From: an uncultured bacterium
GTDB lineage: Bacteria > Chloroflexota > UBA5177 > JANWHV01
Length of the DNA stretch: 64,000 nucleotides
Reading direction: 5' to 3'
Assembly (NCBI GenBank): GCA_963827235.1
Contig: CAWHAE010000010.1
Coordinates: forward strand, 288,001-352,000
Below, one piece after another: positions 15,889 to 47,100 of the stretch. The translations under genes and the position numbers were made by a program. The notes below the pieces were generated by a model. The model saw only the letters and a list, made by a program, of their open reading frames with translations, ran no database searches and was not told the origin of the DNA. Numbering within the stretch: the first letter of the stretch is position 1; each line of letters begins with the position of its first letter.

Positions 15889-18800
15889 TTAGCCTTGCCC
15901 GGCGACGATCTCGCGCACCATGTTATTCCCGGTGTCGGCGACATAGACGTTGACGCCACGTGGGAGCCGCGCTCCCCGATACACAGCGTACGTCGCCACG
16001 CCATAAGGCTGATCCAGCTCTGCCCGCGTCGCCGGGCCGGAGCCTCCGGCGAGACCAGTCACGCCGGTACCGGCTAGGGTGCGAATTGGGTCGGTGCTGG
16101 ACAGTAGAGGGCCGCCCACTTGGCGGATGACCTCACGCACCGCGTCGTTGCCGGCGTCGGCGACGACGATGTTGCCCATGTAGTCCAGAGCCACGCCTCG
16201 CGGCTGGTTAAGCTCAGCCTGGCCGGCCTCCCCACCGTCGCCCGCATAGCCCTGTTCGCCGTTTCCGGCCAACGTGCTGATCGCCGGTGTACCTTGCCTC
16301 GATACCCGGCGAATCACGTTGTTTCCGGTGTCGGCGATGTACATATCACCCCACCCGGCATAGGATCCATCCGGCCGGATAGCGACGTCCTCCGGTCCGC
16401 GTAGCCGCGCCTGGGCGGCGGTGCCGCCGTCGCCACTGTAGCCTGCCATGCCGTTCCCGGCCACGGTGCTGATCCTGTGGGCGGCCAATATGACCTCGCG
16501 AATCCTGTTGTTTCCCGTGTCCGCGATGAACAGGTTGCGGTGACTGTCCACAGCGACGCCACACGGTCCGTCCAGCATGGCCGCAGTCGGCGGGCCGCCA
16601 TCTCCGTCGAACCCGGCCTGGCCATCGCCGGCTACGGTCGATATGATGCCGGATCCGAGGTCCACCTCGCGGATCGCGTTGTTGCCCGTATCGGCGATAT
16701 ACAGCAACTCGTCGCCGGATAGCGCCAGGCCCTCGGGCGCGTTCAGCCGAGCGGCGGCAGCAGGTCCGCCGTCGCCGGCGTAGCCGGGCAGGGTGCTGCT
16801 GCCTACCTCCTGCGTCAGGAGGCCGGTCGACGCATGCAGCTCCATTACGCGATTAAACAGCGTGTCCGCAATGAAAACATTGCCGTGGGAATCCACCGCA
16901 AGTGATCGCGGTTCATCCAGGCCGGCCTGGACAGCCGGTACCTGCCAAGAGAAAGCGCCGGCCTTCCCCGTGCCCGCCGCCGTCAGCACCGTCGCCGAGA
17001 CGGCCTGCGGTGGTGCGCCGACCTCGCGTATCATGTCGTTGCCCGAGTCGGCAATATAGAGGTTGCCTGCAGCGTCGAGGGCGATGGCGCTAGGCTGACT
17101 CAGCTCCGCCTGGATCGCCGGGCCACCGTCTCCGCTGAAACCGCCGATAGTGGCGGCCTGGAAGCCCCCGTGCTTGGCATCATAGCCGCCGCGATAGGCA
17201 GCATACCCGGTGCCGGCGACGCTCATAATGATGCCGCTGGCTGCGAACACTTCGCGTACCGTGGCACAGCCGCTATCCACGATATACAGATTGCCCGCGC
17301 GGTCCAGCGCGAGGCCGGTTGGCCGGATCAGCCCGGCTGATTGTGCCTGATCCCCGTCTCCCACACATCCGTACGTCGTGGGCCCGGTCCCAACTCTGCC
17401 GTGAGGGCCCGAGACGAAGCCATTCCTGTCGGCGGCAGCGTAGAGGTGGCCGGCGCTATCCACGGCCAAGCCCTCCGGCCGGCTGACCTCGTCTATACCA
17501 AGCACCGCGGTGATCACGTGACGGCTCAGGCTCAGCTTGAGCAGGACCACGCCCTGGTCCGAGGTGCCGTAGGCAATGTAGAGATTGTCCTCCCGATCGA
17601 TGGCCAGCGCGTGGGGTGCCAGCAGCGGCGCGACAGGAGCCGCAACGCCCTGAGCGAGGCGCCCGGGATTGTTGCTGGCGGACACGGTCGAGATGATGCC
17701 GCTGCCGGTGTGCACCTCCCGGATACGCTGATTCCCGCTGTCGACGATGTACAGATTGCCGGCGCTGTCCAGCGCCAGCCCTTCCGGCGAGGCCAGCAGC
17801 GCCTTCGTGGCGGGGCCACCATCGCCGCCGTCGCCTCGTGTGCCGGTGCCGGCGAACGTTGTGATGATGCCGGTTGCCGCGTCCACCCGGCGGACCTGCT
17901 GGTTATTGGTGTCCGCAATGTACAGGTTGCCAGCGCGATCGACCGCCACGCCTTGCGGATGATTGAGCCATGCCCGCGTGGCAGGCCCGCCATCACCGCT
18001 GTGGCCGGCGCGTCCGGCGCCTGCGACGGTGAGAATCTGTCCGGCACGCGGTCGCGCTGGCGTGCCCTGCAGCCTGCTCCGCCCGAGGTCAGGAGTTGGC
18101 TGTGTGGTCGGGGTGGCCGTTGCCGGCGGCGTGGACGCGCTGCTCTGCTTGAGGGCGTCCGCGGGCGCGAAGACCTCGCGCACGACGTTCGCCTGTGCAT
18201 CGGCGATGTAGAGATCACCCTCGCCATCCACGGCGATGCCCTGAACACAATCGAATTCCGCCTTCGTGGCAGGCCCCGCATCGCCGCTATAGCCGACCTG
18301 GCCGGTGCCCGCGACCGTGAAGATGGCCCGGGATGAACGCTCCACCATGCGCACCACGTTGTTGCCGTCCGCGATGTAGAGGTCGCTCTGCTGGTCCACA
18401 GCCACGGATGTTGCCAGAAACAAAGACGCCTGCGTAGCCTGCCTGCCGTCGCCGCTGTACCCGCTGTGGCCGCTGCCCGCGACCCCGATTACCCCGCCAA
18501 CGGCTGAGATCTCGCGCACGCGCATATTCCCGGTGTCGGCAACGTACACGTTGCCGCGTGCGTCCGCGGCCAGTCCGCTCGGATCGTACAGGCCGTCGGT
18601 GTTGCGAGCGCCATTCCCCGCTACCGTGCTGATGATGCCGGTTGTCCCGTCGACCTTGCGTACGCGCTGGTGGGCACTGTCGGCGATGAACACGTCTCCG
18701 CCGGCATCCACGGCAACGGAGACCGGGTTGATCGCGGCGTCGATAGCCGGTCCGCCGTCCCGCAGCGCGATGCTCTTGCCGGGCCCGGCTATCGTGGTGA

Positions 18801-20475
18801 TGATCCCGGTCGCGGCGCGCACCTCCCGGACCCTGCCGTTGCCCGTGTCGGCGATGAAAAGATCGCCTGCCGCGTCGACCGCAACCCCCTGCGGTGCTGA
18901 TAATTCCGCCGCCATTGCCTTGTGGCCGTCACCGGCGAACCCTGCCGTGCCGTCGCCGGCCACGGTGGTGATCTTGGCCATGGTCATCGGCCAGGACGAG
19001 TGGACCTCGCGAATGACATTGTTCCCCGTATCGGCGATGAACACATCGCCGGCCTTGTCCACCGCCAGAGACCTTGGCCCATCGAGCATCGCGCGCCGGG
19101 CACTGCCGCCATCCCCGAACCAGCCTGCCGTTCCATCCCCGGCAATGGTCATGATCTCGCCGGCCGGCATGGATGGCACGTGCGGTGACGGCGAACCATG
19201 TGCCTGCGGGGTGATGTCAGGAATCCGGATGACTGTCGGCGTACCGGCCGGCGTGGAGGTTGCGGTTGCCGCGCCGGCAACTGCGGGCGCGGCAACCTCC
19301 AGCACCTGGTTGGCATTATTGTCGGTGAGATACAGGTTGCCCGCGCCGTCCACGGCGATGCCCCACAGGTTGTCGAAGTCGAAGCTGGTCGCAGCGTCGT
19401 GCAGGTCGCAGGGGTACCTGGCTTCCGTGTCGGCAGTACCGGCTACGGTGACTATCCTGCCCGTCGGATCCACCATGCGCAGCACGTCATCGGCGGTGAT
19501 GTACAGGTTGCCTTTCCCATCCACGGCGACGTCACGAGGCTCGTAGAGCCCCACCGCGTTCGCCGTCGCCTGACCGCAGTCGCCGCCGTAGCCGCCGTTT
19601 CCGCTGCCGGCGGCCACGCTCATGACGTGGGGCGGTGCGGCGTCCACCTTGCGCACGCGCAGGTTGTTGTAGTCGGCGATGTACAGGTTGCCGGCGGTGT
19701 CCAGGGCCAGGCCACTGGGCCCGGAGAGCTTGGCCTGGATCGCCCGCACGCTGGCACACTGCTCCGGCGCGCAGCCCACGCCGCTGGCGTCGTCCCTATT
19801 GTTCCCCGCCACGGTCGTGATCGTGCGCGGGCTCGCGGTGTTGATCTCGCGCACCTCCGTGCCGTCGACGACGTAGACGTTGCCGGCGGCATCGACCGCG
19901 ATGCCTTTGGGGTCCATTGCGGCGCCGAGCGCCGGTCCGCTGGGCTCCCGGTCGGTCGCATTCCCGTCGCCGCTATCCCCCGCCACGGTGGTGATACTGT
20001 GCAGGTCGGCAGACACCTCGAGCACCCGGTGGTCGCCAGTGTCGGCGATGAACAGGTTGCCCTGTGCATCCACGGCAACACCTGCCGGGTTCTCCAGCGC
20101 GGCGTCGGTGGGCGACCCGCCGCTCGCCGCGTCGTCGCTACCGCCCCCGGCCACGGTGGTCAGGGTCCGCGTGCCCGGTTTGATCTCGCGAACCAGGCTG
20201 TTGCCGGTGTCCGCGACGAACACGTCGCCGGCTGCGCTCACCGCTATTCCCTCCGGCTCCTTGAGCGGGGGAGTGCCGCTGCCGGAGATATTCGCGATGC
20301 AGCCACGCGCCATAGCGACGCCAGGTTGGCAGAAGGGCTGCACCTGCGCCGGCCGTGCACTGGCGGCCATGACGCCTGCGGGAAGGCGGGGTCTCCAGTC
20401 TGCCGGCCGGCTCAGCCCTATCGGCAGCACCACGAACGCAACACACACGCACCGCGGTTGCCATACTCGCCACAT
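15889..20475 (-). CDS. Giant NHL-repeat (teneurin-type) multi-propeller exported protein
   Basis: Many repeats of P.GVAVD..GNLYIADTGN..IREV......ITTVAG.G..G.SGDGG.A..A.L in blocks separated by Pro/Thr linkers. Start chosen at the ATG with RBS AGGGAGG (about 1528 aa). Confidence 0.88.
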   Translation of the reverse strand: MWRVWQPRCVCVAFVVLPIGLSRPADWRPRLPAGVMAASARPAQVQPFCQPGVAMARGCIANISGSGTPPLKEPEGIAVSAAGDVFVADTGNSLVREIKPGTRTLTTVAGGGSDDAASGGSPTDAALENPAGVAVDAQGNLFIADTGDHRVLEVSADLHSITTVAGDSGDGNATDREPSGPALGAAMDPKGIAVDAAGNVYVVDGTEVREINTASPRTITTVAGNNRDDASGVGCAPEQCASVRAIQAKLSGPSGLALDTAGNLYIADYNNLRVRKVDAAPPHVMSVAAGSGNGGYGGDCGQATANAVGLYEPRDVAVDGKGNLYITADDVLRMVDPTGRIVTVAGTADTEARYPCDLHDAATSFDFDNLWGIAVDGAGNLYLTDNNANQVLEVAAPAVAGAATATSTPAGTPTVIRIPDITPQAHGSPSPHVPSMPAGEIMTIAGDGTAGWFGDGGSARRAMLDGPRSLAVDKAGDVFIADTGNNVIREVHSSWPMTMAKITTVAGDGTAGFAGDGHKAMAAELSAPQGVAVDAAGDLFIADTGNGRVREVRAATGIITTIAGPGKSIALRDGGPAIDAAINPVSVAVDAGGDVFIADSAHQRVRKVDGTTGIISTVAGNGARNTDGLYDPSGLAADARGNVYVADTGNMRVREISAVGGVIGVAGSGHSGYSGDGRQATQASLFLATSVAVDQQSDLYIADGNNVVRMVERSSRAIFTVAGTGQVGYSGDAGPATKAEFDCVQGIAVDGEGDLYIADAQANVVREVFAPADALKQSSASTPPATATPTTQPTPDLGRSRLQGTPARPRAGQILTVAGAGRAGHSGDGGPATRAWLNHPQGVAVDRAGNLYIADTNNQQVRRVDAATGIITTFAGTGTRGDGGDGGPATKALLASPEGLALDSAGNLYIVDSGNQRIREVHTGSGIISTVSASNNPGRLAQGVAAPVAPLLAPHALAIDREDNLYIAYGTSDQGVVLLKLSLSRHVITAVLGIDEVSRPEGLAVDSAGHLYAAADRNGFVSGPHGRVGTGPTTYGCVGDGDQAQSAGLIRPTGLALDRAGNLYIVDSGCATVREVFAASGIIMSVAGTGYAAYRGGYDAKHGGFQAATIGGFSGDGGPAIQAELSQPSAIALDAAGNLYIADSGNDMIREVGAPPQAVSATVLTAAGTGKAGAFSWQVPAVQAGLDEPRSLAVDSHGNVFIADTLFNRVMELHASTGLLTQEVGSSTLPGYAGDGGPAAAARLNAPEGLALSGDELLYIADTGNNAIREVDLGSGIISTVAGDGQAGFDGDGGPPTAAMLDGPCGVAVDSHRNLFIADTGNNRIREVILAAHRISTVAGNGMAGYSGDGGTAAQARLRGPEDVAIRPDGSYAGWGDMYIADTGNNVIRRVSRQGTPAISTLAGNGEQGYAGDGGEAGQAELNQPRGVALDYMGNIVVADAGNDAVREVIRQVGGPLLSSTDPIRTLAGTGVTGLAGGSGPATRAELDQPYGVATYAVYRGARLPRGVNVYVADTGNNMVREIVAGQG

Positions 20476-20864
20476 GATGGCCTCCCTCACTCCGGTGAGG
20501 CTGCCGTGACCTCCTCGGGCACTCATCCATCCTGTTGGGCTTGAGGCTCGCGGCCCAATCATACTGCTGTTCAACTCGCTTCGCAATGGAGTAGCCGATC
20601 CTGCAGATGCACACACGGTAGTCGATCTGTCACCGCGACCGCCTGCGCACTGAGCACGCGGACCTTGCAGCATATGCAATCCATCGGCGCATTGTTCACT
20701 CCGACCGATGTCCTTGAGATTTGAGATAACATTACGCCCCGCACAGGGCGCTGGGCGCCTGGCGGCAGTACACAACGGCGCTGGTGGTCGGGTCAAGGAG
20801 CGGATGGCCGGTACCATAGGCTAGCTCTGGAGGGTACTGACCCATGTTTCCTCCATGCGGCGGC

Positions 20865-21771: not shown

Positions 21772-22664
21772 CGGCCGTCGTCAAAGCCGAGTCGTTGACC
21801 AAGCGCTTCGGTGCGGTCCCCGCGGTCACGGACCTGTCATGTGCGTTGGAGGCTGGGACGATCACGGGCTTTCTCGGACCGAATGGCGCTGGCAAGACAA
21901 CGACGCTTCGGATGATCCTGGGTCTGGCGGCGCCGACGAGTGGACGAGCACTGGTGTTCGATCATCCGTACGCGGCGTTGCCGCGTGCGGCGTTGCGGAT
22001 TGGTGCCGTGCTCGAGGCGACCGATTTCCATCCCGGCCGTTCGGGCCGCGATCACCTGCGGATGCTCGGGCAGGCCGTTGCTGTGCCTGACTCACGTGCG
22101 GACGAGGTGTTGCGCTTGGTGGAGCTGGGTGGCGCCGCCCGGCGGCGTGTGAAGGGATATTCGCTTGGGATGCGTCAGCGACTTGGGCTCGCGGCGGCGC
22201 TGCTTGGCGACCCGGAGCTGCTGATTCTCGACGAGCCGGCCAACGGGCTTGACCCGGAGGGCGTTCGCTGGCTGCGTGACTTCCTGCGCAGGCTGGCCGC
22301 AGCGGGTCGCACGGTGCTCATCTCCAGTCATGTGCTCTCCGAGGTCGCGCAGACGGTTGACCGGGTGCTCATCATCAGTCGCGGGCGGCTCGTGCTCTCG
22401 TCCGCACTGGCAGAGCTGACCGCCCGTGCCGGCGGCGCGGTTCGCGTCCGCTGTGGCGATCCGCAGCGGCTCACTACGGCGCCGCGTGATCAGGCGTTGC
22501 AGGTGACGACGGGTACCGACCACGCGCTGCTCGTCCAGGGAGCATCCAGCGAGCGGATCGGTGAGATCGCCTTCGCCGCCGGCGTCCCGGTTCACGAGCT
22601 GGTCAACGATGGCGGCGTGCTGGAGGACATCTTCCTCGAACTGACCGCGAAGGCACCGGCATGA
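21768..22664 (+). CDS. ABC-2 type exporter ATP-binding protein (BcrA-like)
   Basis: Walker A GPNGAGKTT, signature YSLGMRQRL, Walker B LILDEPANGLD, SSH. Confidence 0.95.
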   Translation: MTAVVKAESLTKRFGAVPAVTDLSCALEAGTITGFLGPNGAGKTTTLRMILGLAAPTSGRALVFDHPYAALPRAALRIGAVLEATDFHPGRSGRDHLRMLGQAVAVPDSRADEVLRLVELGGAARRRVKGYSLGMRQRLGLAAALLGDPELLILDEPANGLDPEGVRWLRDFLRRLAAAGRTVLISSHVLSEVAQTVDRVLIISRGRLVLSSALAELTARAGGAVRVRCGDPQRLTTAPRDQALQVTTGTDHALLVQGASSERIGEIAFAAGVPVHELVNDGGVLEDIFLELTAKAPA

Positions 22665-23071
22665 TCGCGCAGATCCGGGCAGAGCTCCTGAAGATTCGCT
22701 CGACCCGGACCACGCTCGGACTGGTCCTCGGGATGATCGCGCTGATCCTGCTCATTACGCTGCTCACCGGGCTGCTCACCCTCCCAAGCGGGCTTGCCGG
22801 CAAACAGGACCAGCGTCAGCTGCTGAGCCTGAGCAGTCTCGCAGGCGTGTTCTCTGCACTTGCAGGGGTGTTGCTTGTGACCGGCGAGTACCGCTTCGGC
22901 ACGATCCGCCCGACGTTCCTGTTCAACCCCGCGCGCTCACACGTCCTGGCCGCCAAGGTCATCGCCGGCGCACTGGCCGGCATCGCATTCGGCGTCCTCG
23001 GCGAGGCAATCGCCTGGGCGATTCCGCTATGCGATCCCCGCCGGGCGTGGCATCACTCAGCTCAGGCATGA
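22661..23071 (+). pseudogene. ABC-2 permease, 3'-truncated
   Basis: MIAQIRAELLKIRSTRT...GEYRFGTIRPTFLFNPARSHVLAAK. Only 136 aa (about half the usual size), and it runs into the convergent gene. Confidence 0.75.
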
Positions 23072-24240
23072 GCACCGGCGGTCACCGTGCCCACGGTCAA
23101 GCTGGGCTGGGCACCGAGCATGGCCCCGATGCGCTCCACCTGGTCGCGCAGTGCCCGGTCTTGCGCGGCACTCAGGGCATCGAATGGCTCCACGGTGATC
23201 GCCGCGCGGCGGCCCGTGCGGCGCACGTGCCACACGCCAGCGACCATGCCGTCGATGAGCAACACCGGATAGTTCCCGGCTTGGCCGCTTGGGGTCAGCG
23301 CGCGCGTGCTGGCGCGACCGGGAAACAGCAACGCCCGCGGCTGGCAGCCGACGACATAGGCATCGAAGTAGGGGAGCAGCCGGACACTTGCCGGCGGAGC
23401 AGGAGAAGCCTCGCCGTCGTCGGCGCTGACCCAGGCCCTGGTGCCGGCGACGTGGAGGGGCCGGAGTTGCTGACCGAGGGACGCGAAAAGACGGCGCGCC
23501 CAGGCGTGGGGTGCGCGCAGCCACTGGGCGAAGTGCTCCGGCGTGGCCGGCCCGTAGGCATAGAGGTAGCGGTGCACTAGTGCGACAAGGGCCGCCTCGC
23601 CTTCCAGCGGGCGGAAGGTGGGGAGCCAGCGGTGGGGACTGGTGTAGGTGACCGTCTTGCCTCGGTTCGGGCCGAAGCAGAGCATCCCGCGATGCGCCGC
23701 CGTGGCCAGCGCTTGCCGCCACCGCGGCCACAGCGTGCCGAACGCGGGCATGACGCGCTCGCCCGCCCAGCCGCCAGCGCGCGCAATAACCGCCGCGTCC
23801 AGTTCCTCCAACGTCAGCTCCTGGTCCTCCAGCGCCCGTCCGATCGCATCGACCACGGAGTCAGTTTGCAGCGGCGTCAGACGCACAGCCGGAGCGTGGC
23901 CGAGCGGGGCGAGCGGCATGGCGGAGAGCGCCCCGATCCACGCGGGCAGGTCGGCCGTCGCGAGCAGGTGGACGGTGCCGCGCGGCCCGAAGGTCTTGAT
24001 CAGGCTACGCTCGCGCCACAAGGCGTCCTGCACCGCCGTGCGCGACAGCGCGGTGGCGCGTAGCCCAATGGCCAGCTCTGCCGCGGAAAGCACCTGCGCG
24101 TGCACAGCGCACAGCGTAGTCACAATGGCTGCGGGTTGGGCGGTGTGGCGTGGCTCGAGCAGCGCATGCCGCGCCAGGCGCCTCGCGCAGACGTTGCGCC
24201 AGGACCAGCTCGGAAAGTCGATGTTCTGGCCATCCGCCAT
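23062..24240 (-). CDS. AlkZ-like (HTH_42, winged-helix) DNA glycosylase family protein
   Basis: AVHAQVLSAAELAIGLR (HxQ motif), LIKTFGPRGTVHL, RYLYAYGPAT, VRLLPYFDAYVVG, VLLIDGMVAGVW. RBS GAGGAGG. Confidence 0.88.
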   Translation of the reverse strand: MADGQNIDFPSWSWRNVCARRLARHALLEPRHTAQPAAIVTTLCAVHAQVLSAAELAIGLRATALSRTAVQDALWRERSLIKTFGPRGTVHLLATADLPAWIGALSAMPLAPLGHAPAVRLTPLQTDSVVDAIGRALEDQELTLEELDAAVIARAGGWAGERVMPAFGTLWPRWRQALATAAHRGMLCFGPNRGKTVTYTSPHRWLPTFRPLEGEAALVALVHRYLYAYGPATPEHFAQWLRAPHAWARRLFASLGQQLRPLHVAGTRAWVSADDGEASPAPPASVRLLPYFDAYVVGCQPRALLFPGRASTRALTPSGQAGNYPVLLIDGMVAGVWHVRRTGRRAAITVEPFDALSAAQDRALRDQVERIGAMLGAQPSLTVGTVTAGAHA

Positions 24241-24256
24241 GAGCAGCGCCTCCTCC

Positions 24257-25426
24257 TCACCGTCCAGGAAGCGCCACGCTCGAGCTGGGCGGCTCCGGCC
24301 GCCACCATGGCACGTCCACCGTTCCCACGGCGTCCACGTCATCAGGAGCCGCGGGCGGCATGGCCTGCGCGGTCCCGGCCAATGGCGTGTGCGGTGGGCG
24401 GCGCGGGATGCGCTGGTCCGATGGAGGGATGCCACCGCCGGGGGTCCAGTCGCCTGGGCGCCGCACCTCCCACTGTTGGTCCGGCCTGTCGCTGCCCAGC
24501 GCGATCACCATCACCAGGAGGTCATCGCCCAAGCTGCCGTCACTCACGACGCCCAGACAGGAGACCTTGCCTTCTCCGGCCTCCGCGACCATCAACGTCG
24601 CCACTTGGGCGGCTTCGAGCGGCGAAAGCTGGTCCGCTGCCACTGCATAGAACAGCCGGATCGCGTTGCTCGGCGCAGTCCGCAGGAGCGGGCTTGTCAG
24701 CGCCTGCAGGGCGGCGTATGTCGCGCGGTCCAGACCTGACGCCCGGCCGATGCCGATAGAGCTGCGACCTCCGGCGGGGAGCAGGCCATTCAGGTCCGCA
24801 ATGGAAATCCCAGCTATGCTCGGCTCCACGAAAGTGCGCGCAAGGATGCGCACGACAAGCTGCACGAACTCGTCGGCGAACGCGAACGCCATGTCCATCG
24901 AGAATTTCCTGTCTGACACGTGCAGCAACAGGTCGCACGGGACGACAATCAGCAAGTCGACCGCGGATGTTAGTGTGTCGATCGCTTCGGCGGCCGTGTC
25001 GCGGCGGCGACCTTCAAACGTGAACGGCGCGGTGACGACGCCAATGGTCAGAACACCTTCTTGACGAGCAATCCCGCCAAGCACGGGTGCGCAGCCGCTT
25101 CCCGTCTCGCCGCCCATGCCGGCCACGATGAAGAGCACGTCGTTTCTCTCGACGGCCAGCCGGAGCGTCTCACTTGCCTCCTGGGCGGCCCTTCGACCTG
25201 GGCTTGCCGCGACGCCGGCGTTCGGTCCGCTCAGGGTTGGCGCGACGAGGTGAATCTTCTTGGGCGCTCTCGACCGCGCCAGAGCGTCCGCATCGGTATC
25301 GATGACGGCGATCTGCGCCTCCGGAATCCCGGCAAGCATCATGGCATCAATAACCCTGCCGCCGGCGCCGCCCACGCCGACAATCCTGATCCTGGCGTCG
25401 TGCGCTGGCGAGTCCTGCTGAGCCAT
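24257..25426 (-). CDS. Divergent FtsZ paralogue (tubulin/FtsZ GTPase fold, degenerate motifs)
   Basis: IRIVGVGGAGG, AVIDTD, FIVAGMGGETGSGCAPV, LTIGVVTAPFTFEGRRR, IGIGRASG.DRA, ALTSPLL and VMVIALG follow the FtsZ motif order. Several catalytic positions are altered. Confidence 0.9.
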   Translation of the reverse strand: MAQQDSPAHDARIRIVGVGGAGGRVIDAMMLAGIPEAQIAVIDTDADALARSRAPKKIHLVAPTLSGPNAGVAASPGRRAAQEASETLRLAVERNDVLFIVAGMGGETGSGCAPVLGGIARQEGVLTIGVVTAPFTFEGRRRDTAAEAIDTLTSAVDLLIVVPCDLLLHVSDRKFSMDMAFAFADEFVQLVVRILARTFVEPSIAGISIADLNGLLPAGGRSSIGIGRASGLDRATYAALQALTSPLLRTAPSNAIRLFYAVAADQLSPLEAAQVATLMVAEAGEGKVSCLGVVSDGSLGDDLLVMVIALGSDRPDQQWEVRRPGDWTPGGGIPPSDQRIPRRPPHTPLAGTAQAMPPAAPDDVDAVGTVDVPWWRPEPPSSSVALPGR

Positions 25427-26041
25427 GCCATACACCTTACGCGCTGTCTGGTAATCCAGCTCATTGTCGCACAATGCTGCGAAGCGACGCGCCGGCACCA
25501 TGTGGCGGCCCGCCGAACCCTCCGGTACGGTTGAGCGGGGACATACCGAATCTGATTGAGTGGACGTTGCTCTCTAATACCGAGTTTGATCGATTTAGCG
25601 GACTTACCGACGTAGAACTCATCTTTCGCGAGGCACGTTCAAACTGCTCTTGGCGGCGGCATCGGCGTGCTGACGGCGCTGGGGCATGATGACCTCCCTG
25701 ATGCGTCACGTTACGGTTGCGGGTGAGGGGCGTCGACGTGTGTGCCGCGTACCGCCGGACAGCGTGTCCTGCTGGTGGGCCATACACGGTCACGATGCCG
25801 GCCGGGCGCGCAACGCCCCGACGAGCCGCGGACCGGTGAGCCGATCGTCCTGGAGCCAGGAGTCATCGAACTCGAGGATCACCTGGGCCCGCCAGCGCTG
25901 GATGGCACGCTCTCCCTCGAACCGGTCATACCCCACCAGTTGCACGAGCAGAAGCCACGCAACCTGCCGGTCGTGTAGCGGCGGCGGTAGGGTCGTTGCA
26001 GTATCATGTGCGCAACACACGTTGCTGTTAAGGTGGCAGGG

Positions 26042-27172
26042 ATGGCGACAATCAAGGATGTGGCGCGACTGGCCGGCGTTACCCACACCACGGTCTCGCA
26101 TGCGCTGAGCGGGAATCGGCCGGTGGCACCCAAGACGCGGGAAGCCATACTGGACGCGGTGCGCGAGCTCAACTACCACCCGAACGCCAATGCCCTCAGC
26201 CTGACCGCGCGATTCACGAAGCGCATCTGCCTGGCCGTGCCGCTGGATGCGCCGAATCGAAGCCTTTCAAAGGGACCGTCCTTCGACTTCATCGCGAGCG
26301 TCGGCGATCGGCTCTCCCACCATGGCTATGCACTGGTGTGCGAGATCTCCCATGGACTGGACGCGGCCAGCGTGGTCGATCTGGTGCGCCGGCGCCACGT
26401 CGACGGTGTGTTGCTGCTGGGCACACAGTTGGTTGACCCTCGCGTGGAGGCTCTGCGCAAAGCAGGCGCCCCGTTCGTGACTCTTGGCCGCACAAAGCGG
26501 CCATCGCACTACGTGCGCGTCGACGCAGACGCGGCCGGCGCGGCGGAAACCGCGGTGGAGCACCTGTTCAGCCTCGGGCATCAACACATCGGCCTGGTAT
26601 TGCCGGTGCTGAACGGGGCGCCGGTACTGGGCAGCCACTTTCACGCGCTTGCGGGCTTCAAGCGAGCCTATGCCGGCTTGGGCCTGCCGGTACACAAGCG
26701 GCAGATTGTGACCTACAACCTGATGGAGGGCGTGCGCGAGAGCCTGCGGCCGCTCTTCGAGCGTCGCAGCGAGCTGACGGCGCTCATCGCGGCGGGCAAC
26801 GACCTCGAAGCAGTCTCCGTCCTGCGTGCGCTGATCGAGCACGGCCGGCGCGTGCCCGAGGACATCTCGCTCATGGGACTCGTGGATTCGCCCCTCACTC
26901 AAATGTCGCAACCCTCGATTTCGGTGACGGATCTTCCTGTGAGCGAGATGTGCAAGCTCGCGGTGGACTTGCTGGTGGACCTGGTTCAAGGGCGCAAGCC
27001 GCGCCAGATGGAGTACCTCTTGCCCGTGACCCTCATCGAGCGCCCCAGCACGGCACGGATTGGCGCGTCGCTGTATCACGAGCCGAGGCCGCTCGGCAAT
27101 CGTCCTCGAGCCACTGCACCGCCGTTCCGCCAAAATGCATGCTCAGATCGTCGATCAGGCCGTTCGCATTGA
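26042..27172 (+). CDS. LacI-family transcriptional regulator
   Basis: MATIKDVARLAGVTHTTVSHALSG...LNYHPNANALSL; GRRVPEDISLMG; LIERPST. The C-terminal tail overlaps a permease remnant. Confidence 0.93.
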   Translation: MATIKDVARLAGVTHTTVSHALSGNRPVAPKTREAILDAVRELNYHPNANALSLTARFTKRICLAVPLDAPNRSLSKGPSFDFIASVGDRLSHHGYALVCEISHGLDAASVVDLVRRRHVDGVLLLGTQLVDPRVEALRKAGAPFVTLGRTKRPSHYVRVDADAAGAAETAVEHLFSLGHQHIGLVLPVLNGAPVLGSHFHALAGFKRAYAGLGLPVHKRQIVTYNLMEGVRESLRPLFERRSELTALIAAGNDLEAVSVLRALIEHGRRVPEDISLMGLVDSPLTQMSQPSISVTDLPVSEMCKLAVDLLVDLVQGRKPRQMEYLLPVTLIERPSTARIGASLYHEPRPLGNRPRATAPPFRQNACSDRRSGRSH

Positions 27173-35817: not shown

Positions 35818-35975
35818 TGTGCGGATACTCTAGATAGATCAACTGCGGTATTCAGCGATGAGGCGGTACATGTCGCCCAGCATGTTGTGCTAAGTCTGCC
35901 GTACCGGAGATTGGCCAGGACGCCGGTGTGCCGCGAGTGCATGACAGCCTGAGGCTTAAGGAGCACTTATTCAGC

Positions 35976-37583
35976 ATGGGTAAGCTGTTGGTCCACGATC
36001 AAGAAGCACGAGAGGCATTGCAACGCGGTATCAACACGCTGACGCGCGCGGTGCGGAGCACGCTCGGGCCTAAAGGCTGCAACGTCGCGCTCGGCAAAGC
36101 GGGCGGACCACCACTCATAACACATGATGGCGTAACGGTTGCCGAGGACATCGACCTCAAGGACGTGCTCGAGAACATGGGCGCTCAGCTGCTGAAGGAA
36201 GCGGCGAGCAAGACGAACGAAGCAGCCGGAGACGGCACTACCACGGCCACCGTGCTGGCCAACTCTCTCGTCAATGAAGGCTTGCGGGCGGTCGCGGCAG
36301 GCGCCGACCCAGTGATCCTCAAGCAGGGAATCGCCGCGGCCACCGCCGCTGTGGTTCAGCACGTCCGCGAGCACAGCAGGCCAGTGGCGGAGCAGAGCGG
36401 CATCGCGGAAATTGCCAGTATTTCGTCCGCGGATCGGGCCATCGGAGCATTGATCGCAGAGGTGCTGCAGAGGGTGGGCGCCGACGGGACTATTACCGTG
36501 GAGGCCGGCAATCGAACGAGCACGGAGGTCAGGTACGTGGAAGGCATGGAGATCGAACAAGGGTTCGTCTCCGCGCACTTCATCACCGATGCGGAGCGGC
36601 GCCAAGCGGTGATCGAAAACCCCCTGGTCTTTGTTACGGATCGAAGACTCACCACTATCGACGATGTGGCGCCACTGCTGGAGATATTGGTCACGGCGGA
36701 CAGGCGAGATGTGCTCATCGTCGCCGACGACGTCATCGGCGATGCCCTTGCCACTCTGGTGGCAAATACGGTGCGTGGCGTGATCCGGTCAGTAGCGATC
36801 AAGGCTCCGTTTCTCGGCGAGAGGCGTTTCGACATACTCATGGACATTGCCACGCTCACGGGCGCTGAGCTGTACAGCACATTGAGCGGCCGCCAGCTCG
36901 ACTATCTCGCCTTCCGCGACCTTGGCTCGGCCACACGCATCATGTCGAATGCGGATACGACCGTGATCGTGGGCGGTGGCGGCTCGGCGGACGCAATACG
37001 CTCCCGGATCAACGCGCTCAAAGTCCAGCTCAGCACGGCAACTAACTTCCACGTGCGCGAACGACTTGAGCAGCGAATCGGCAAGCTGTCCGGCGGCGTG
37101 GCGGTCATTCACGTCGGGGCTTCCAGTGAGGTTGAGATTAAGGAGAAGAAGGCCCGGATAGAAGATGCCCTTGCCGCCGCCCGCGCTGCGGCGGCAGAAG
37201 GCGTCGTTCCCGGCGGTGGAGTGGCCTTGCTCAATGCCACCGCGGCCCTGGACCACCTGGATGCAGAAGGGGATGCCAGGATCGGTGTGAGTCTGCTGCG
37301 CCGTGCCTTGGAGGAGCCGGCGCGCCAGATCGCGCTGAACGGAGGAGGAGACGGGTCCGTAGTCGTAGACGCTATCCGAGCACGACAGGCCGCCGCCCAA
37401 AACAATAACATTGGCTACAACACTATCACCGACGCGTACGAGGATCTTATGGACTCAGGTGTCATAGATTCCGCAAAGGTCACGCGCATAGCCCTGGAGA
37501 ACGCCTCGAGCATCGCGCAGATGGTGCTGACCACGGAGACGCTTGTCGCCGAATGCCGGGGAGCAGCCGGGGCTAGGCCATAG
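35976..37583 (+). CDS. groEL: Chaperonin GroEL (Cpn60) paralogue, no adjacent groES
   Basis: TLGPKG, ITHDGVTVA, AGDGTTTATVLA, KLSGGVAVI.VGA, EKKARIEDAL, GVVPGGG, KVTRIALENA.S. No GGM tail. Confidence 0.95.
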   Translation: MGKLLVHDQEAREALQRGINTLTRAVRSTLGPKGCNVALGKAGGPPLITHDGVTVAEDIDLKDVLENMGAQLLKEAASKTNEAAGDGTTTATVLANSLVNEGLRAVAAGADPVILKQGIAAATAAVVQHVREHSRPVAEQSGIAEIASISSADRAIGALIAEVLQRVGADGTITVEAGNRTSTEVRYVEGMEIEQGFVSAHFITDAERRQAVIENPLVFVTDRRLTTIDDVAPLLEILVTADRRDVLIVADDVIGDALATLVANTVRGVIRSVAIKAPFLGERRFDILMDIATLTGAELYSTLSGRQLDYLAFRDLGSATRIMSNADTTVIVGGGGSADAIRSRINALKVQLSTATNFHVRERLEQRIGKLSGGVAVIHVGASSEVEIKEKKARIEDALAAARAAAAEGVVPGGGVALLNATAALDHLDAEGDARIGVSLLRRALEEPARQIALNGGGDGSVVVDAIRARQAAAQNNNIGYNTITDAYEDLMDSGVIDSAKVTRIALENASSIAQMVLTTETLVAECRGAAGARP

Positions 37584-43757: not shown

Positions 43758-44122
43758 GGTCGGATCCTTTCGTTCTTGTCCTTACGGGTGCCGCATGGTG
43801 GTGATCCACCGGGCATCCGTCGTCGCCGTGGGTCATGCGGTGCAGCTGCTGCCTCCCGCTCCCAACGCGGTCTGGCCTCCTTCGACTGATCCTCCTTTCC
43901 CTCGTCTTGCTGGTCGGCTTGGCACGCCCGGCTTGGCAGGAGTACTGCCCGGGACCCTGCGACCAGTCTGCGCTCACCGGCCGGCCCCAACCACGCAAAA
44001 CCGGCAACGCGACCGGCAAGAGCATCGGCAAGTCTTCCACGGTGTGCTATGCTCGTGCCTGTAGGGCGGAAACGGCCGGTGCACCGCTGCCCCGCTGGGC
44101 GGCAGAGGGACGGGCAGGCGCC

Positions 44123-47100
44123 GTGACCACGCTGTCGGGACCCTCCGAGGACGGGCGCCCGTCTGAGCAGGCGTTCGGCACGCTGTTGCGCGGCTACCGG
44201 CATGCCGCGGGGCTGACTCAGGAAGAGCTGGCCGAGCGGGCCGGTCTCGGAGTGCGCAGCATCAGCGACCTGGAGCGAGGTGCGCCGCACGCGCCGCGCA
44301 AGGACACCGTGGCCCTGCTGGCGGAGGCTTTGGCCCTTGGATTTGCTGAGCGCCGAGCCTTCGAGGCGGCAGCGCGCCGCCTCAGTCGCCCCCCCGTACC
44401 CGACGGAGCAGCTGCCGTAGAGCGGCCCGCGATCTTCGTGTGCTACGCAGGCGAAGATCGCGCCTTCGTGGAACGCCTGCGTGCCGACCTCACCAAGCGC
44501 GGCCTCGCCGACTGGGAGGGACCCCACGGTGCGCCTCCGGGCACCGCCGACTGGGAAGAGGCTGTCCGGGAGGGCATCCGCGCCTGCCAGGCCGTGGTGC
44601 TGGTCGCCTCGCCGGCGGCGCGCCTCTCACGCTTCGTTAAGGGCGAGCTGGCCGTGGCCGAGATGTATCGCCGCCCGATTGTGCCGATCTGGGCCGCCGG
44701 GGAGCAGTGGCTGGACTGCGTGCCGCTCGTCCTGAGCACCGCCCAGTACGTCGATGCCCGCGATCCGCGCTACTCCCAGGCGGTTGAGGAAGCTGCCGCA
44801 GTGCTGAGCGCGCTGGTCGCCGCCATCCCCACCACTGCGCTGAGCAGGCCGGCCGCCGACCGCTCAGGCACTCCGGCGGCCGCGGTGCGCCCGGTTTCCC
44901 CACGCAACCCGTACAAGGGGCTGCGCGCGTTCACCGAGGCGGACGCGGACGACTTCTTCGGGCGTTCCGGCCTGGTCGGCGAGCTGCTCGCGGCGGTCGG
45001 CGATGCCGGCGCGGGGCCGCGCTTCTTGGCCGTGGTCGGCCCCAGCGGCTCGGGCAAGTCCAGTGTCGTGCTGGCCGGCCTCCTGCCTCGCCTGCGGGCC
45101 GGCGCCCTCCCAGGCAGCGCGGGTTGGACCTACCTGCCGCCGCTGCTGCCGGGCGCCCACCCGCTGGAGGCGCTCACTGTTGCCCTGGGCGCCGCCCTGC
45201 CCCTGAGCCTCGCCACGCTGCGCGCCGACCTGGATGCCTCGGAGCGTGGCCTGCACCTGCTGGCGGCCCGCCTCGTGCCCCAGGCAGGCGGCCTCGTGGT
45301 GCTCGTGGTCGACCAGGCCGAGGAGCTGTTCACCCTGACGGCAGAGGAGGAGGAGCGGGAGCAGTTCTTCGCCCTGCTGACGACGGCCGCCGGCGAGCCG
45401 CAGGGCCGCACGCTGGTCGTGCTGACCCTGCGCGCCGACTTCTACGACCGCCCCCTGGCCTACCCGGCGCTCGGCCGGCTGCTGGAGGGGCACAGCAAGG
45501 CGGTGCTGCCCATGGGGCTTGCCGACCTGCGCGCGGCCATCGAGGGACCCGCCGGCCTGGCCGATGTGGGACTGCACTTTGAGGAGCGCCTGGTGGGGGA
45601 CCTGCTCTACGAGGTAGGTGGCCAGCCGGGGGCCCTGCCCCTCCTGCAGTTCACGCTCGATCAGCTCTTCGAGCGACGGCAGGACCACCTGCTGACCCAG
45701 GCGGTCTACGCGGAGCTGGGAGGGGTGCGCGGCGCGCTGGCCCGGCAGGCCGAGCGCACCTACACGCTGCTGCCGTCGGCTGAGCACGGCCGGATGGCCC
45801 GCGCGCTGTTCCTGCGGCTGATCGAGCCGGGGGCCACCGAGCAAGACACCGTCCGCCGCCGCGCCCTGCTGAGCGAGCTGGAGCTGGCCGACCGGCGGCA
45901 GACGGCACTGCTGCGCGCGGTGGTCGATGCCTTCGTGGGGGCCCGGCTGCTCACCACGGCGGAGCATGGGGGCACGACCACCGTGGAGGTGAGCCACGAG
46001 GCGCTGATCCGGGAATGGCAACGGCTGGCGGCCTGGCTGCACGAAGCACGCGAGGACATCCGGCTGCAAGAGGCGATCAGCGCGGATGCGGCGGCATGGG
46101 TCCGGCGGGGCCGTCCGCCCGACAGCCTGTATCGGGGCAGCGTGCTGCAGGAGGCACGGACCTGGGCGGCGCGGAACGTGGCGAGCGCGGAGGAGGTGGC
46201 CTTTCTGGAAGCGGGGGTGGCCGAGGCAGAGCGCCGGGAGGCGGCTGAGCGCGATTCACAGGCGCGCGAGCTGCACCTGGCCCAGGAAGCAGCTGCCGCG
46301 GCCCAGCAGACGGCAGCGGCCAATCGGCGCACCGCCGTACGGTCGCGCGCACTGGCAGGGATGCTGGCACTCTTCCTGCTGGTGTCTGCTGGCCTGAGTG
46401 TGTACGCCTTCAACAAGGCCTCGGATGCCAGCCAGGCCAGGACACGCGCGGCGGCCAGCGCCCGTGAAGCCCAGGCCAATGCACGCGCCGCGAGTCTGGC
46501 CCGTACCACGGCGCTCGGCGAGCGGACCACCGCCCTGGCCGCACTGTCCCGCGAATTGACGCTGCGCGCCGCTGAGTTGCTGGGGAGCCGGACAGGCAGT
46601 CAGACGCAGCTTGCCCTGTTGTTGAGCGCGGAAGCCCTGCACTTGAGCAGCTCAGCAGAGGCGCAGATCAACGTAGTCAGTTTCATCAACCACAACCCAC
46701 GGGTGCGGTCAGTTCTCGGCCCGCAGACCGGCGCCGTGGAGAGCGTGGCCTTCAGCCCCGACGGCACATGGCTGGTCTCACGCAGCAACGTGGGCACGGT
46801 CCAACTGTGGGACGTGGCCGGCGGCCAACCCCTGGCCGCACCCCTCAGCGTGTCCACAAGCACGGTCGAGAGCGTGACCGTCAGCCCCGACGGGAAGACC
46901 CTGGCCCTGAGCAGCGTCGACGGCACCCTGCGGTTCTGGGATGTGGCCCGCCGCCTGCCACACGGCCCGCCCCTCAGGGGGCACATCTTTGGGGATACCC
47001 TGGCCTTCAGCTCCGACGGCACGCTACTCGCCTGCGGCAATGCCGATGGCACGATTCAGGTGTGGGACGTGGTCCGCCTCCAACGCCTTGGCCCGCCCCT

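Follow-up and report, generated by a model that had tools for sequence, protein, structure and literature searches.

A putative non-catalytic FtsZ derivative with a conserved C-terminal tail in an uncultured Chloroflexota bacterium

The gene ftsZ3 is encoded on the minus strand of a stretch of 64,000 nucleotides (nt) from an uncultured bacterium of the Chloroflexota (assembly GCA_963827235.1, contig CAWHAE010000010.1, positions 288,001 to 352,000), the whole of which is called the window here. We hold with moderate confidence that its product is a pseudo-GTPase with the fold of FtsZ, from which it derives, and that it is maintained and non-catalytic, would act by protein contacts and belongs to a tiny, lineage-restricted subfamily. 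Profile matches and trees mark the protein as FtsZ in both fold and descent. In four defining respects it departs from the functional FtsZ equivalog, namely the score cut-off, the signature motif, the T7 loop and the location in the division cluster. An earlier note on this DNA, made from the sequence alone, had described a degenerate FtsZ paralogue and predicted that catalysis was impaired; the prediction is supported by the alignments, which show replacements at the catalytic residues of T7 and at several residues that contact GTP. The host assembly measures 7.98 Mb in 21 contigs (64-68% G+C, 95.9% complete, 9% 'contamination') and the window is located on a contig of 1.08 Mb.

Fold and degenerate motifs of ftsZ3

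Both domains of FtsZ were recognised in the protein by Pfam. The Tubulin/FtsZ GTPase domain (PF00091) was found at residues 13-170 with E = 3.8e-29, above the gathering cut-off, and FtsZ_C (PF12327) at residues 220-311 with E = 7e-7 (29.9 bits versus a cut-off of 27), in agreement with the earlier note, according to which the C-terminal domain was retained. On the NCBIfam ftsZ equivalog TIGR00065 the protein scored 202.1 bits, under the cut-off of 295.2. A total of 50 distinct PDB sequences matched at E ≤ 0.001, of which 49 were FtsZ chains (1e-37 to 1e-53, the top one at 1.4e-53) and the remaining one was 4b46 (1.8e-7), which we take to be a CetZ. None of the 50 was a TubZ chain, and Tubulin_2 (PF13809) had no match in the protein at E ≤ 0.1. 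The possibility that ftsZ3 is an FtsZl, TubZ or CetZ was rejected on these matches and on its position nested inside bacterial FtsZ. The phylogeny proposed by the earlier note was obtained in part: a tree of 52 rows placed ftsZ3 inside bacterial FtsZ, and TubZ and CetZ, which have no rows in that tree, were judged by the PDB matches.

Motifs are named here in the usual way, with GGGTG[TS]G as the tubulin signature and GxGxG..P as T3, both with their established roles in FtsZ. The T7 loop of FtsZ enters the GTP site of the neighbouring subunit and triggers hydrolysis there. In FtsZ structures, the residues of T1, T3, T4, T6 and T7 that are replaced in ftsZ3 contact the phosphates, the base and the attacking water.

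The substitutions listed in the earlier note were all confirmed in the alignments: GGNAVN has become GGRVID (residues 22-27), NTD has become DTD (residues 43-45), T3 GLGAG..P has become GPNAGVAA (residues 67-74), GGGTGTG has become GGETGSG (residues 105-111), IPND has become VPCD (residues 162-165) and the T7 loop GLINLDFAD has become SIAGISIAD with the last Asp kept (residues 203-211), while PFTFEGRRR is retained (residues 134-142). The changes in the nucleotide pocket amount to Gly to Glu in GGGTGTG, Gly to Asn in T3, Asn to Arg in T1 and Asn to Cys in IPND. For a canonical reference, 121 columns were used that are at least 85% conserved across 55 canonical FtsZ. The third Gly of the signature is conserved in 98% of these 55 rows and the T3 Gly, an Asn in ftsZ3, in 100%; for T7, where ftsZ3 has G-I-S-I-A-D, the figures are 98% for the Asn and 100% for the first Asp. 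Over the 121 columns, 46 changes were counted in the ftsZ3 protein, 35 each in its relatives P0003 and P0123, 20 in FtsZ2 and six in FtsZ1 of the same genome.

The ftsZ3 reading frame

The frame opens with an ATG at 25426-25424 and closes with a stop codon at 24257-24259. An alternative in-frame ATG at 25501 would give a product of 414 amino acids (aa). The start at 25426 is preferred, because AAGGTG is found 6 nt upstream of it and because it agrees with the N-termini of the relatives P0003, P0123 and P0269 in the alignment; the GGAGGG before the 25501 ATG is 16 nt distant. The earlier note had called the open reading frame (ORF) intact, and indeed no stop or frameshift interrupts its 389 codons on the minus strand, with homology continuing to residue 377. 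The G+C content by codon position (0.69/0.50/0.78) resembles that of the neighbouring genes.

The ftsZ3 family

Six sequence clusters make up the family, as recovered from 1.84 billion cluster representatives by a profile search and from 5.8 billion proteins by a word-index search. Besides the window copy (cluster P0002), these are P0003 (411 aa, the sister of the window protein and 42% identical to it), P0004 (341 aa, with the N-terminus cut and about 30 residues around T5 lacking), P0123 (391 aa), P0124 (a fragment of 264 aa) and P0269 (389 aa). In the profile search the five members found there scored 335-711 bits and canonical FtsZ at most 310; in a second profile search the family scored 539-679 bits and the next protein 414. 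One further candidate, P0122 (531 bits), was excluded, being a canonical tandem FtsZ-FtsZ fusion with two matches to the profile. This protein of 840 aa holds two complete canonical FtsZ units and ends in NIPEFLRRR. The TIGR00065 scores of four family members (294.9, 246, 232 and 202 bits) are all under 295.2, with the window copy lowest. The earlier note had counted a lack of orthologues, together with a dN/dS near 1, against its reading; relatives sharing the T7 loss and a specific tail were found.

The T7 Asn and first Asp are gone in all six members (GISIAD, HWGIAE, HVAFAE, TLSFSE, TLSFGE and TLSFGE), and the last Asp, kept in the window copy only, is a Glu in the other five. Five members cover the NTD region, and each of them has DTD or DAD there. 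The remaining loops vary. The T4 loops of five members read GGETGSG, GGGIGTG, GGDTGSS, GGGTGSG and GGDAGGR, and the counterparts of IPND in the six are VPCD, LPCD, IPNN, VPND, VSND and LSND. The member with GGGTGSG is P0123, which also keeps VPND and, as GLGTDGNP, the only near-canonical T3 loop of the family. Since the T7 loss is common to the family and the T4 loops differ, the loss appears to be old and the erosion of the GTP pocket later and independent, an order, read here from the alignments, that pseudo-enzymes usually follow. Three of the five T4 loops have Asp or Glu in place of the third Gly. This may be a mere transition bias (GGN to GAN), or the carboxylate may fill the phosphate site.

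The family was recovered as a clade with support of 100/100 in two maximum-likelihood trees of 52 and 33 rows. In the 52-row tree, five family members group with P0126 at 100/97, and a set of 12 rows made up of these, P0126 and the FtsZ1 and FtsZ2 of the genus to which the window copy belongs has a support of 100/96. FtsZ of other families of the class fall outside this set, which suggests that the ftsZ3 family arose by duplication within its own lineage. Canonical FtsZ named 'Chloroflexota bacterium' by NCBI fall among or beside the FtsZ1 rows of the genus, which makes a Chloroflexota lineage probable from the trees too.

The canonical row nearest the family in the 33-row tree, at a weak support of 58/54, is P0271. 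This protein of 412 aa scores 383.5 bits on TIGR00065, carries GGGTGTG, NTD, VPND and NLDFAD, and has the first tail motif of the family in the form PPSTQRIPRRP, without the second motif or VPW. Because a canonical FtsZ that carries motif 1 is also the nearest canonical row, an origin of the family from an active paralogue fits, and P0271 possibly represents the catalytically active precursor type.

In P0126 (537 aa) and P0283 (525 aa), FtsZ is extended at the N-terminus by about 190 aa; both proteins lie near FtsZ1 of this lineage and have no C-terminal peptide. A precomputed Pfam domain HTH_17 (PF12728) is present in P0283, and P0126 is a fusion of a helix-turn-helix (HTH) domain with FtsZ. 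Their T7 loops are altered to ILDLVD and NLDFAA.

The conserved C-terminal tail

A tail of the form PPSDQRIPRRPP ... DAVG.I.VPW is common to all six members and absent from other FtsZ, with the family consensus G.PP[SA]DQRI[PA]RRPP..P.AG.A ... [DE]AV[GA].[IV].VPW[WLI]. The element PPSDQRIPRRPP, which the earlier note had not flagged, is its most strongly conserved part. Identity of the window copy to the other members is 57-69% over the tail (residues 329-377) and 70-85% over motif 1, compared with 42-45% in the N-domain, 36-43% in the C-domain and 18-24% in the linker (residues 312-328).

Canonical FtsZ ends in a conserved peptide D-[ILV]-P-x-F-[LI]-[RK], which binds FtsA, SepF and ZipA. Such a peptide is present in FtsZ1 of the same genome and in its relatives. 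The tail sequence VDVPWWR, which the earlier note likened to DIPxFLR, is found at residues 370-376, where it aligns with DLPTFLR of FtsZ1. In form the two differ: V-D-V-P-W-W-R lacks the residue between Pro and the aromatic and is one residue shorter, and in the family as a whole the element reads VPW[WLI].

Searches for further copies of the tail gave little. A tail-only search of the 5.8 billion proteins (119 candidates) returned only the query itself at E ≤ 10, a result that says nothing on absence as the motif is too short for significance. In the genome itself the tail motifs were found at the ftsZ3 locus only, apart from a QRIARRP in a junk frame, and tblastn matches were low-complexity Pro-rich noise. 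Scans of genome and metagenome contigs with an alignment of three members brought no further tail-bearing locus; their results were swamped by canonical FtsZ through F[IV]VAGMGG. A DNA pattern for DQRI[PA]RRPP matches the window at 24393-24418 and, of 21 genomes of the class, matched that of the window only. With up to one mismatch, 19 of 401 genomes of the phylum matched, and a reversed-pattern control also gave scattered matches. Two of the 18 other genomes were read, the only other exact match (G266) and one with a single mismatch (G111), and both were rejected as ftsZ3-type loci, the matches lying in Arg/Pro-rich frames that are not FtsZ; the other 16 all have one mismatch.

Probable maintenance of the gene

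The window copy has the longest terminal branch in both trees, with 2.45 changes per column in the 52-row tree (median 0.26; sister P0003 0.73) and 2.08 in the 33-row tree. This branch, the lowest TIGR00065 score of the family (202 versus 232-295), the largest number of changes at canonical columns, the retention of 11 of 16 agreed tail residues, of which P0003 keeps all 16, and the lack of an orthologue found in the same genus would all be expected if the window copy were a decaying duplicate, with the family perhaps functional elsewhere. Its frame would then be open only because stops are rare in G+C-rich DNA, and long spurious ORFs are indeed plentiful in the window. We consider such decay rather improbable. 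A frame of 389 codons is free of stops and frameshifts and homologous to residue 377, its G+C pattern by codon position is typical of a coding gene, and it is tightly coupled to the downstream gene by a Shine-Dalgarno sequence. Of 130 residues shared by three or more of the other members, the window copy keeps 92 and, at canonically conserved columns, 54 of 67, well above the overall identity of about 43%. The tail, which looks disordered and would be expected to decay first, is the best-conserved part. That relatives conserve both the T7 loss and the specific tail argues against a mere decaying duplicate, and ftsZ3 appears to represent a maintained pseudo-enzyme lineage, not a fresh pseudogene.

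Other FtsZ and division genes of the genome

Three FtsZ-like genes are present in the genome. FtsZ1 (426.5 bits on TIGR00065) is encoded directly downstream of ftsA (447.5 bits on TIGR01174) on contig C20 and ends in DPYDLPTFLRNR, with the peptide DLPTFLR. FtsZ2 (390.7 bits; L002:1399-2505, contig C12 of G000) has canonical motifs and no C-terminal peptide. It also occurs in a genome of the same genus (G001, L162) and is for that reason not regarded as a contaminant of the assembly. With these two canonical-type copies beside ftsZ3, the canonical ftsZ that the earlier note had proposed to look for elsewhere in the genome is accounted for. Equally, its statement that the gene lies outside the dcw (division and cell wall) cluster, with no ftsA, ftsQ or mur gene near, holds for the genes annotated at about 10.7-48.7 kb of the window, ftsA being on another contig. 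SepF was not found in the genome, and FtsA is the only FtsZ tether found there.

In the trees, FtsZ2 groups with FtsZ1 of its own genus and not with the short second FtsZ (about 320 aa) of most other genomes of the class. The two types of 'FtsZ2' for this reason look like independent duplications.

Predicted function

According to the scheme that we favour, duplication of the FtsZ of this lineage would have given rise to the ftsZ3 subfamily. With the T7 Asn and first Asp lost throughout the family, its members would not activate GTP hydrolysis in a partner subunit; the nucleotide loops have since eroded independently in different members, and the window copy probably does not bind GTP, while the fold-defining residues and the new C-terminal extension are still conserved. 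Two routes of action can be envisaged. The protein may join protofilaments of FtsZ1 or FtsZ2 as a non-hydrolysing end or poison subunit, or its conserved tail may dock onto a partner, possibly FtsA. By either route Z-ring assembly would be modulated and no ring built by ftsZ3 itself. Such capping or regulation of the Z-ring is plausible as a putative role. The gene is probably expressed together with that of an AlkZ-like DNA glycosylase downstream.

Several observations weigh against a maintained, non-catalytic FtsZ derivative. In the window copy the top face, with the GTP pocket, and the bottom face, with T7, have both changed, and docking onto FtsZ by either may be impaired. Residual nucleotide binding is possible, as the last T7 Asp, E138, R142, F181 and D185 are kept. 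The longest branch and the 46 changes at 121 canonical columns suggest that constraint on this copy may be relaxed. In a genome of 65% G+C, where spurious frames longer than 300 aa abound, the open frame of ftsZ3 is weak evidence. No orthologue was found in four genomes of the same genus (83-92% complete), in the other 16 of the class or in 380 further genomes sampled from the phylum, nor was an orthologous locus seen in the same genus, where neighbouring genes are just 30-46% identical; in a search of 40 related genomes the best matches (32-39% identity) were ordinary FtsZ. From the lack of an orthologue in these relatives and the non-syntenic neighbourhood, ftsZ3 is considered an accessory gene. 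The position of P0271, on which the proposed precursor leans, belongs among these points too on account of its weak support.

The residues that were kept also bear on a different explanation, in which ftsZ3 is still nucleotide-dependent and self-assembling and forms filaments of its own that serve not ordinary septation but some other process, such as differentiation in a filamentous bacterium with a large genome. The fold, T5 (PFTFEGRRR), F181 and D185 of helix 7 and the last T7 Asp would all serve such a filament, P0123 has GGGTGSG, GLGTDGNP and VPND, and past duplications of FtsZ are seen in the lineage (FtsZ2 and the HTH-FtsZ fusions). Accessory FtsZ paralogues with special roles are known, and a truncated FtsZ of Magnetospirillum is mentioned in 10.1101/412759. 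An active filament is nevertheless unlikely, since the Asn and first Asp of T7 are missing throughout the family, and in the window copy Glu takes the place of the third Gly of the phosphate-binding signature, with further replacements at the T3 Gly, T1 Asn and T6 Asn. The lost residues are among those that contact the phosphates and the attacking water in FtsZ structures.

It is less likely still that ftsZ3 is a scaffold unrelated to the Z-ring, whose fold and tail bind the AlkZ-like DNA glycosylase or another protein recognising Pro/Arg motifs: the operon-like arrangement with the AlkZ-like gene, tail motifs unlike the canonical D-[ILV]-P-x-F-L and the failure to find SepF in the genome would agree with it, but motif 2 is aligned at the position of the FtsZ1 C-terminal peptide and the upstream region yielded neither a LexA-type box nor another regulatory clue.

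The favoured scheme, that of a non-catalytic FtsZ derivative acting by contacts, can be extended by analogy with SulA, in a speculation to which we give little credence. Members of the FtsZ3 family would act on the Z-ring as natural 'poison subunits', docking on the ends of FtsZ filaments, or on FtsA through the VPW tail, and arresting division; the acidic T4 side chain of three of five members might mimic a bound nucleotide, and co-transcription with a homologue of an interstrand-crosslink glycosylase would make of it a damage-coupled division checkpoint, SulA-like but built from FtsZ. The DNA-damage part of this idea is without regulatory support, since no LexA-type box (GAACN4GTTC) lies near ftsZ3; the window has two matches, at 36.5 and 61.1 kb.

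Comparison with known FtsZ variants

With canonical FtsZ (TIGR00065; PF00091 and PF12327), ftsZ3 shares the signature of the two-domain fold, and its best PDB matches are FtsZ chains. It differs by degeneration of GGGTGTG, T3, NTD, IPND and the T7 NxDxxD, by its position away from ftsA and by a peptide replaced by PPSDQRIPRRPP ... VPWW. Degenerate or accessory FtsZ copies are known, but most such cases are truncated or stand alone. Extra, non-essential copies beside one canonical gene likewise occur as FtsZ1 and FtsZ3 in Agrobacterium tumefaciens and as a truncated FtsZ in Magnetospirillum, and they are without the canonical linker and C-terminal peptide (10.1101/412759). Of the A. tumefaciens copies, FtsZ1 is an active GTPase that co-polymerises, and FtsZ3 is diffuse and gives no phenotype (10.1101/412759). 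These copies are truncated, one to a partial GTPase domain and the others without a tail (10.1101/412759), whereas ftsZ3 is full length with point-degenerate loops and a conserved new tail.

FtsZ of Nitrosopumilus maritimus is a natural homologue that also lacks the T7 loop (NVDFAD) and a GTP-binding motif, and it forms no polymers in yeast (PMC3684127). Unlike ftsZ3 it is archaeal, of an unrelated sequence lineage and the only FtsZ of its genome, in a host that divides by Cdv, and no PPSDQRIPRRPP or VPW tail is described for it in the accessible part of that report (PMC3684127). Mutations of the T7 loop of E. coli FtsZ disrupt polymerisation and not GTP binding (PMC3684127), mutations of the bottom interface are toxic, and capping of the bottom end shortens filaments (PMC8936486). 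Engineered T7 and bottom-face mutants and MciZ, as subunits that poison or cap filaments, offer a model for a T7-less FtsZ (PMC8936486, PMC3684127). The mutants keep their GTP pocket and MciZ is a small peptide (PMC8936486, PMC3684127), whereas in ftsZ3 the pocket is eroded too, so that the same docking is not assured. FtsZl-1 and FtsZl-2 (Tubulin_2), TubZ and CetZ resemble ftsZ3 as divergent members of the FtsZ/tubulin superfamily outside the division cluster (PMC2875224, PMC9871819).

None of these closest precedents unites a full-length fold with T7 loss throughout a clade and a tail that is newly conserved. No description of an FtsZ subfamily with this tail, or of a natural T7-less clade of bacterial FtsZ, was found in the literature searched, a body of work without most subscription journals and supplements. 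The clade presents an ordered path to a pseudo-enzyme, leading from an active paralogue with the new tail (P0271-like) over T7 loss to independent erosion of the pocket, with the Pro/Arg-rich tail under strong constraint. Should capping or poisoning of FtsZ be true, ftsZ3 would be a genetically encoded counterpart of the bottom-face mutants by which the polarity of FtsZ was defined in the laboratory, and would regulate division in a new way, being itself made from FtsZ. For finding the partner of ftsZ3, the conserved tail is a direct handle. Interest is tempered by the rarity of the family and by an organism known from its genome assembly alone.

Locus and neighbouring genes

The features of ftsZ3 and its surroundings are collected in Table 1. 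The stop codon of ftsZ3 overlaps GGAGGAGG of the downstream gene, and co-transcription with that gene is probable in view of the short gap with this Shine-Dalgarno sequence. Three AlkZ-like loci are present in the genome. The neighbourhood consists of AlkZ-like, LacI-family, MerR, ABC transporter, GH4 and sugar-utilisation genes.

Table 1. Features of the ftsZ3 locus in the window. Coordinates are window positions; residues are those of the encoded protein.
Feature	Coordinates	Strand	Details
ftsZ3, degenerate FtsZ paralogue	24257..25426 (including stop codon)	minus	389 aa; ORF and Pfam, NCBIfam and PDB homology
Tubulin/FtsZ GTPase-like domain	24917..25390	minus	Residues 13-170; PF00091, E = 3.8e-29; eroded T1 GGAGGR, T2 DTD, T3 GPNAGVAA and T4 GGETGSG; T5 PFTFEGRRR kept
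Degenerate tubulin signature GGETGSG	25094..25114	minus	Residues 105-111; third Gly to Glu; alignments
Degenerate T7 loop SIAGISIAD	24794..24820	minus	Residues 203-211; Asn and first Asp gone; alignments
FtsZ C-terminal domain	24494..24769	minus	Residues 220-311; PF12327
Tail motif 1, GIPPSDQRIPRRPPHTPLAG	24374..24433	minus	Residues 332-351; best-conserved block of the family; 70-85% identity to other members
Tail motif 2, VDAVGTVDVPWWRP	24296..24337	minus	Residues 364-377; aligned at the position of the FtsZ1 C-terminal peptide
Spacer with Shine-Dalgarno sequence GGAGGAGG	24241..24256	minus	16 nt; Shine-Dalgarno 8 nt upstream of the following ATG, which suggests that the two genes are co-transcribed and translationally coupled
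AlkZ-like (PF06224) DNA glycosylase family gene	23062..24240	minus	392 aa; Pfam E = 2.8e-59; downstream of ftsZ3
Upstream region	25427..26005	.	579 nt; shared with the divergent LacI-family gene; promoter/terminator, LexA-box and Rfam scans
LacI-family regulator gene	26006-27172	plus	Divergent; shares the upstream region with ftsZ3

No promoter of ftsZ3 was recognised in the upstream region; the single promoter-like site (26031-26003, minus strand), about 580 nt upstream, is uninformative. Rfam gave no match in this region. PADLOC reported nothing for FtsZ3 or the AlkZ-like protein, and generic 'mads' matches for the neighbouring MerR and ABC ATPase were not interpreted.

A stop-to-stop frame upstream of ftsZ3 (25790-26266, minus strand) ends in a protein-like sequence (...DRFEGERAIQRWRAQVILEFDDSWLQDDRL...) and overlaps the start of the LacI-family gene. 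The frame may be what is left of a gene; those of the overlapping ORFs that were tested had no match in Pfam. On the other side, an ABC-2 permease frame (22661-23071, plus strand) is only 136 aa long, roughly half of what is normal, and shares its last 10 nt with the 3' end of the convergent AlkZ-like gene. One DNA sequencing run contained 6% of the sampled words, and no RNA run was listed; a low-depth metagenome contig, which covers window positions 23000-23280 and does not reach ftsZ3, has one base missing at 23022. The short frame may be due to a frameshift, to an error of assembly or to the boundary of a rearrangement. No remnant of the truncated permease was seen upstream of ftsZ3, where it was looked for as a sign of insertion.

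Further away, a protein with NHL repeats (beta-propeller, 1642 aa) is encoded at 15889-20817 on the minus strand. Long antisense ORFs lie over this gene, from which it follows that spurious frames easily stay open in G+C-rich DNA. A stand-alone chaperonin gene (Cpn60/GroEL family, E = 8e-62) is located amid sugar-utilisation genes at 35928-37583 on the plus strand. At 43835-48697, also on the plus strand, a protein of 1620 aa is encoded in which an nSTAND1 NTPase domain (E = 1.6e-114) is followed by many WD40 repeats, an architecture typical of bacteria of the multicellular type with large genomes.

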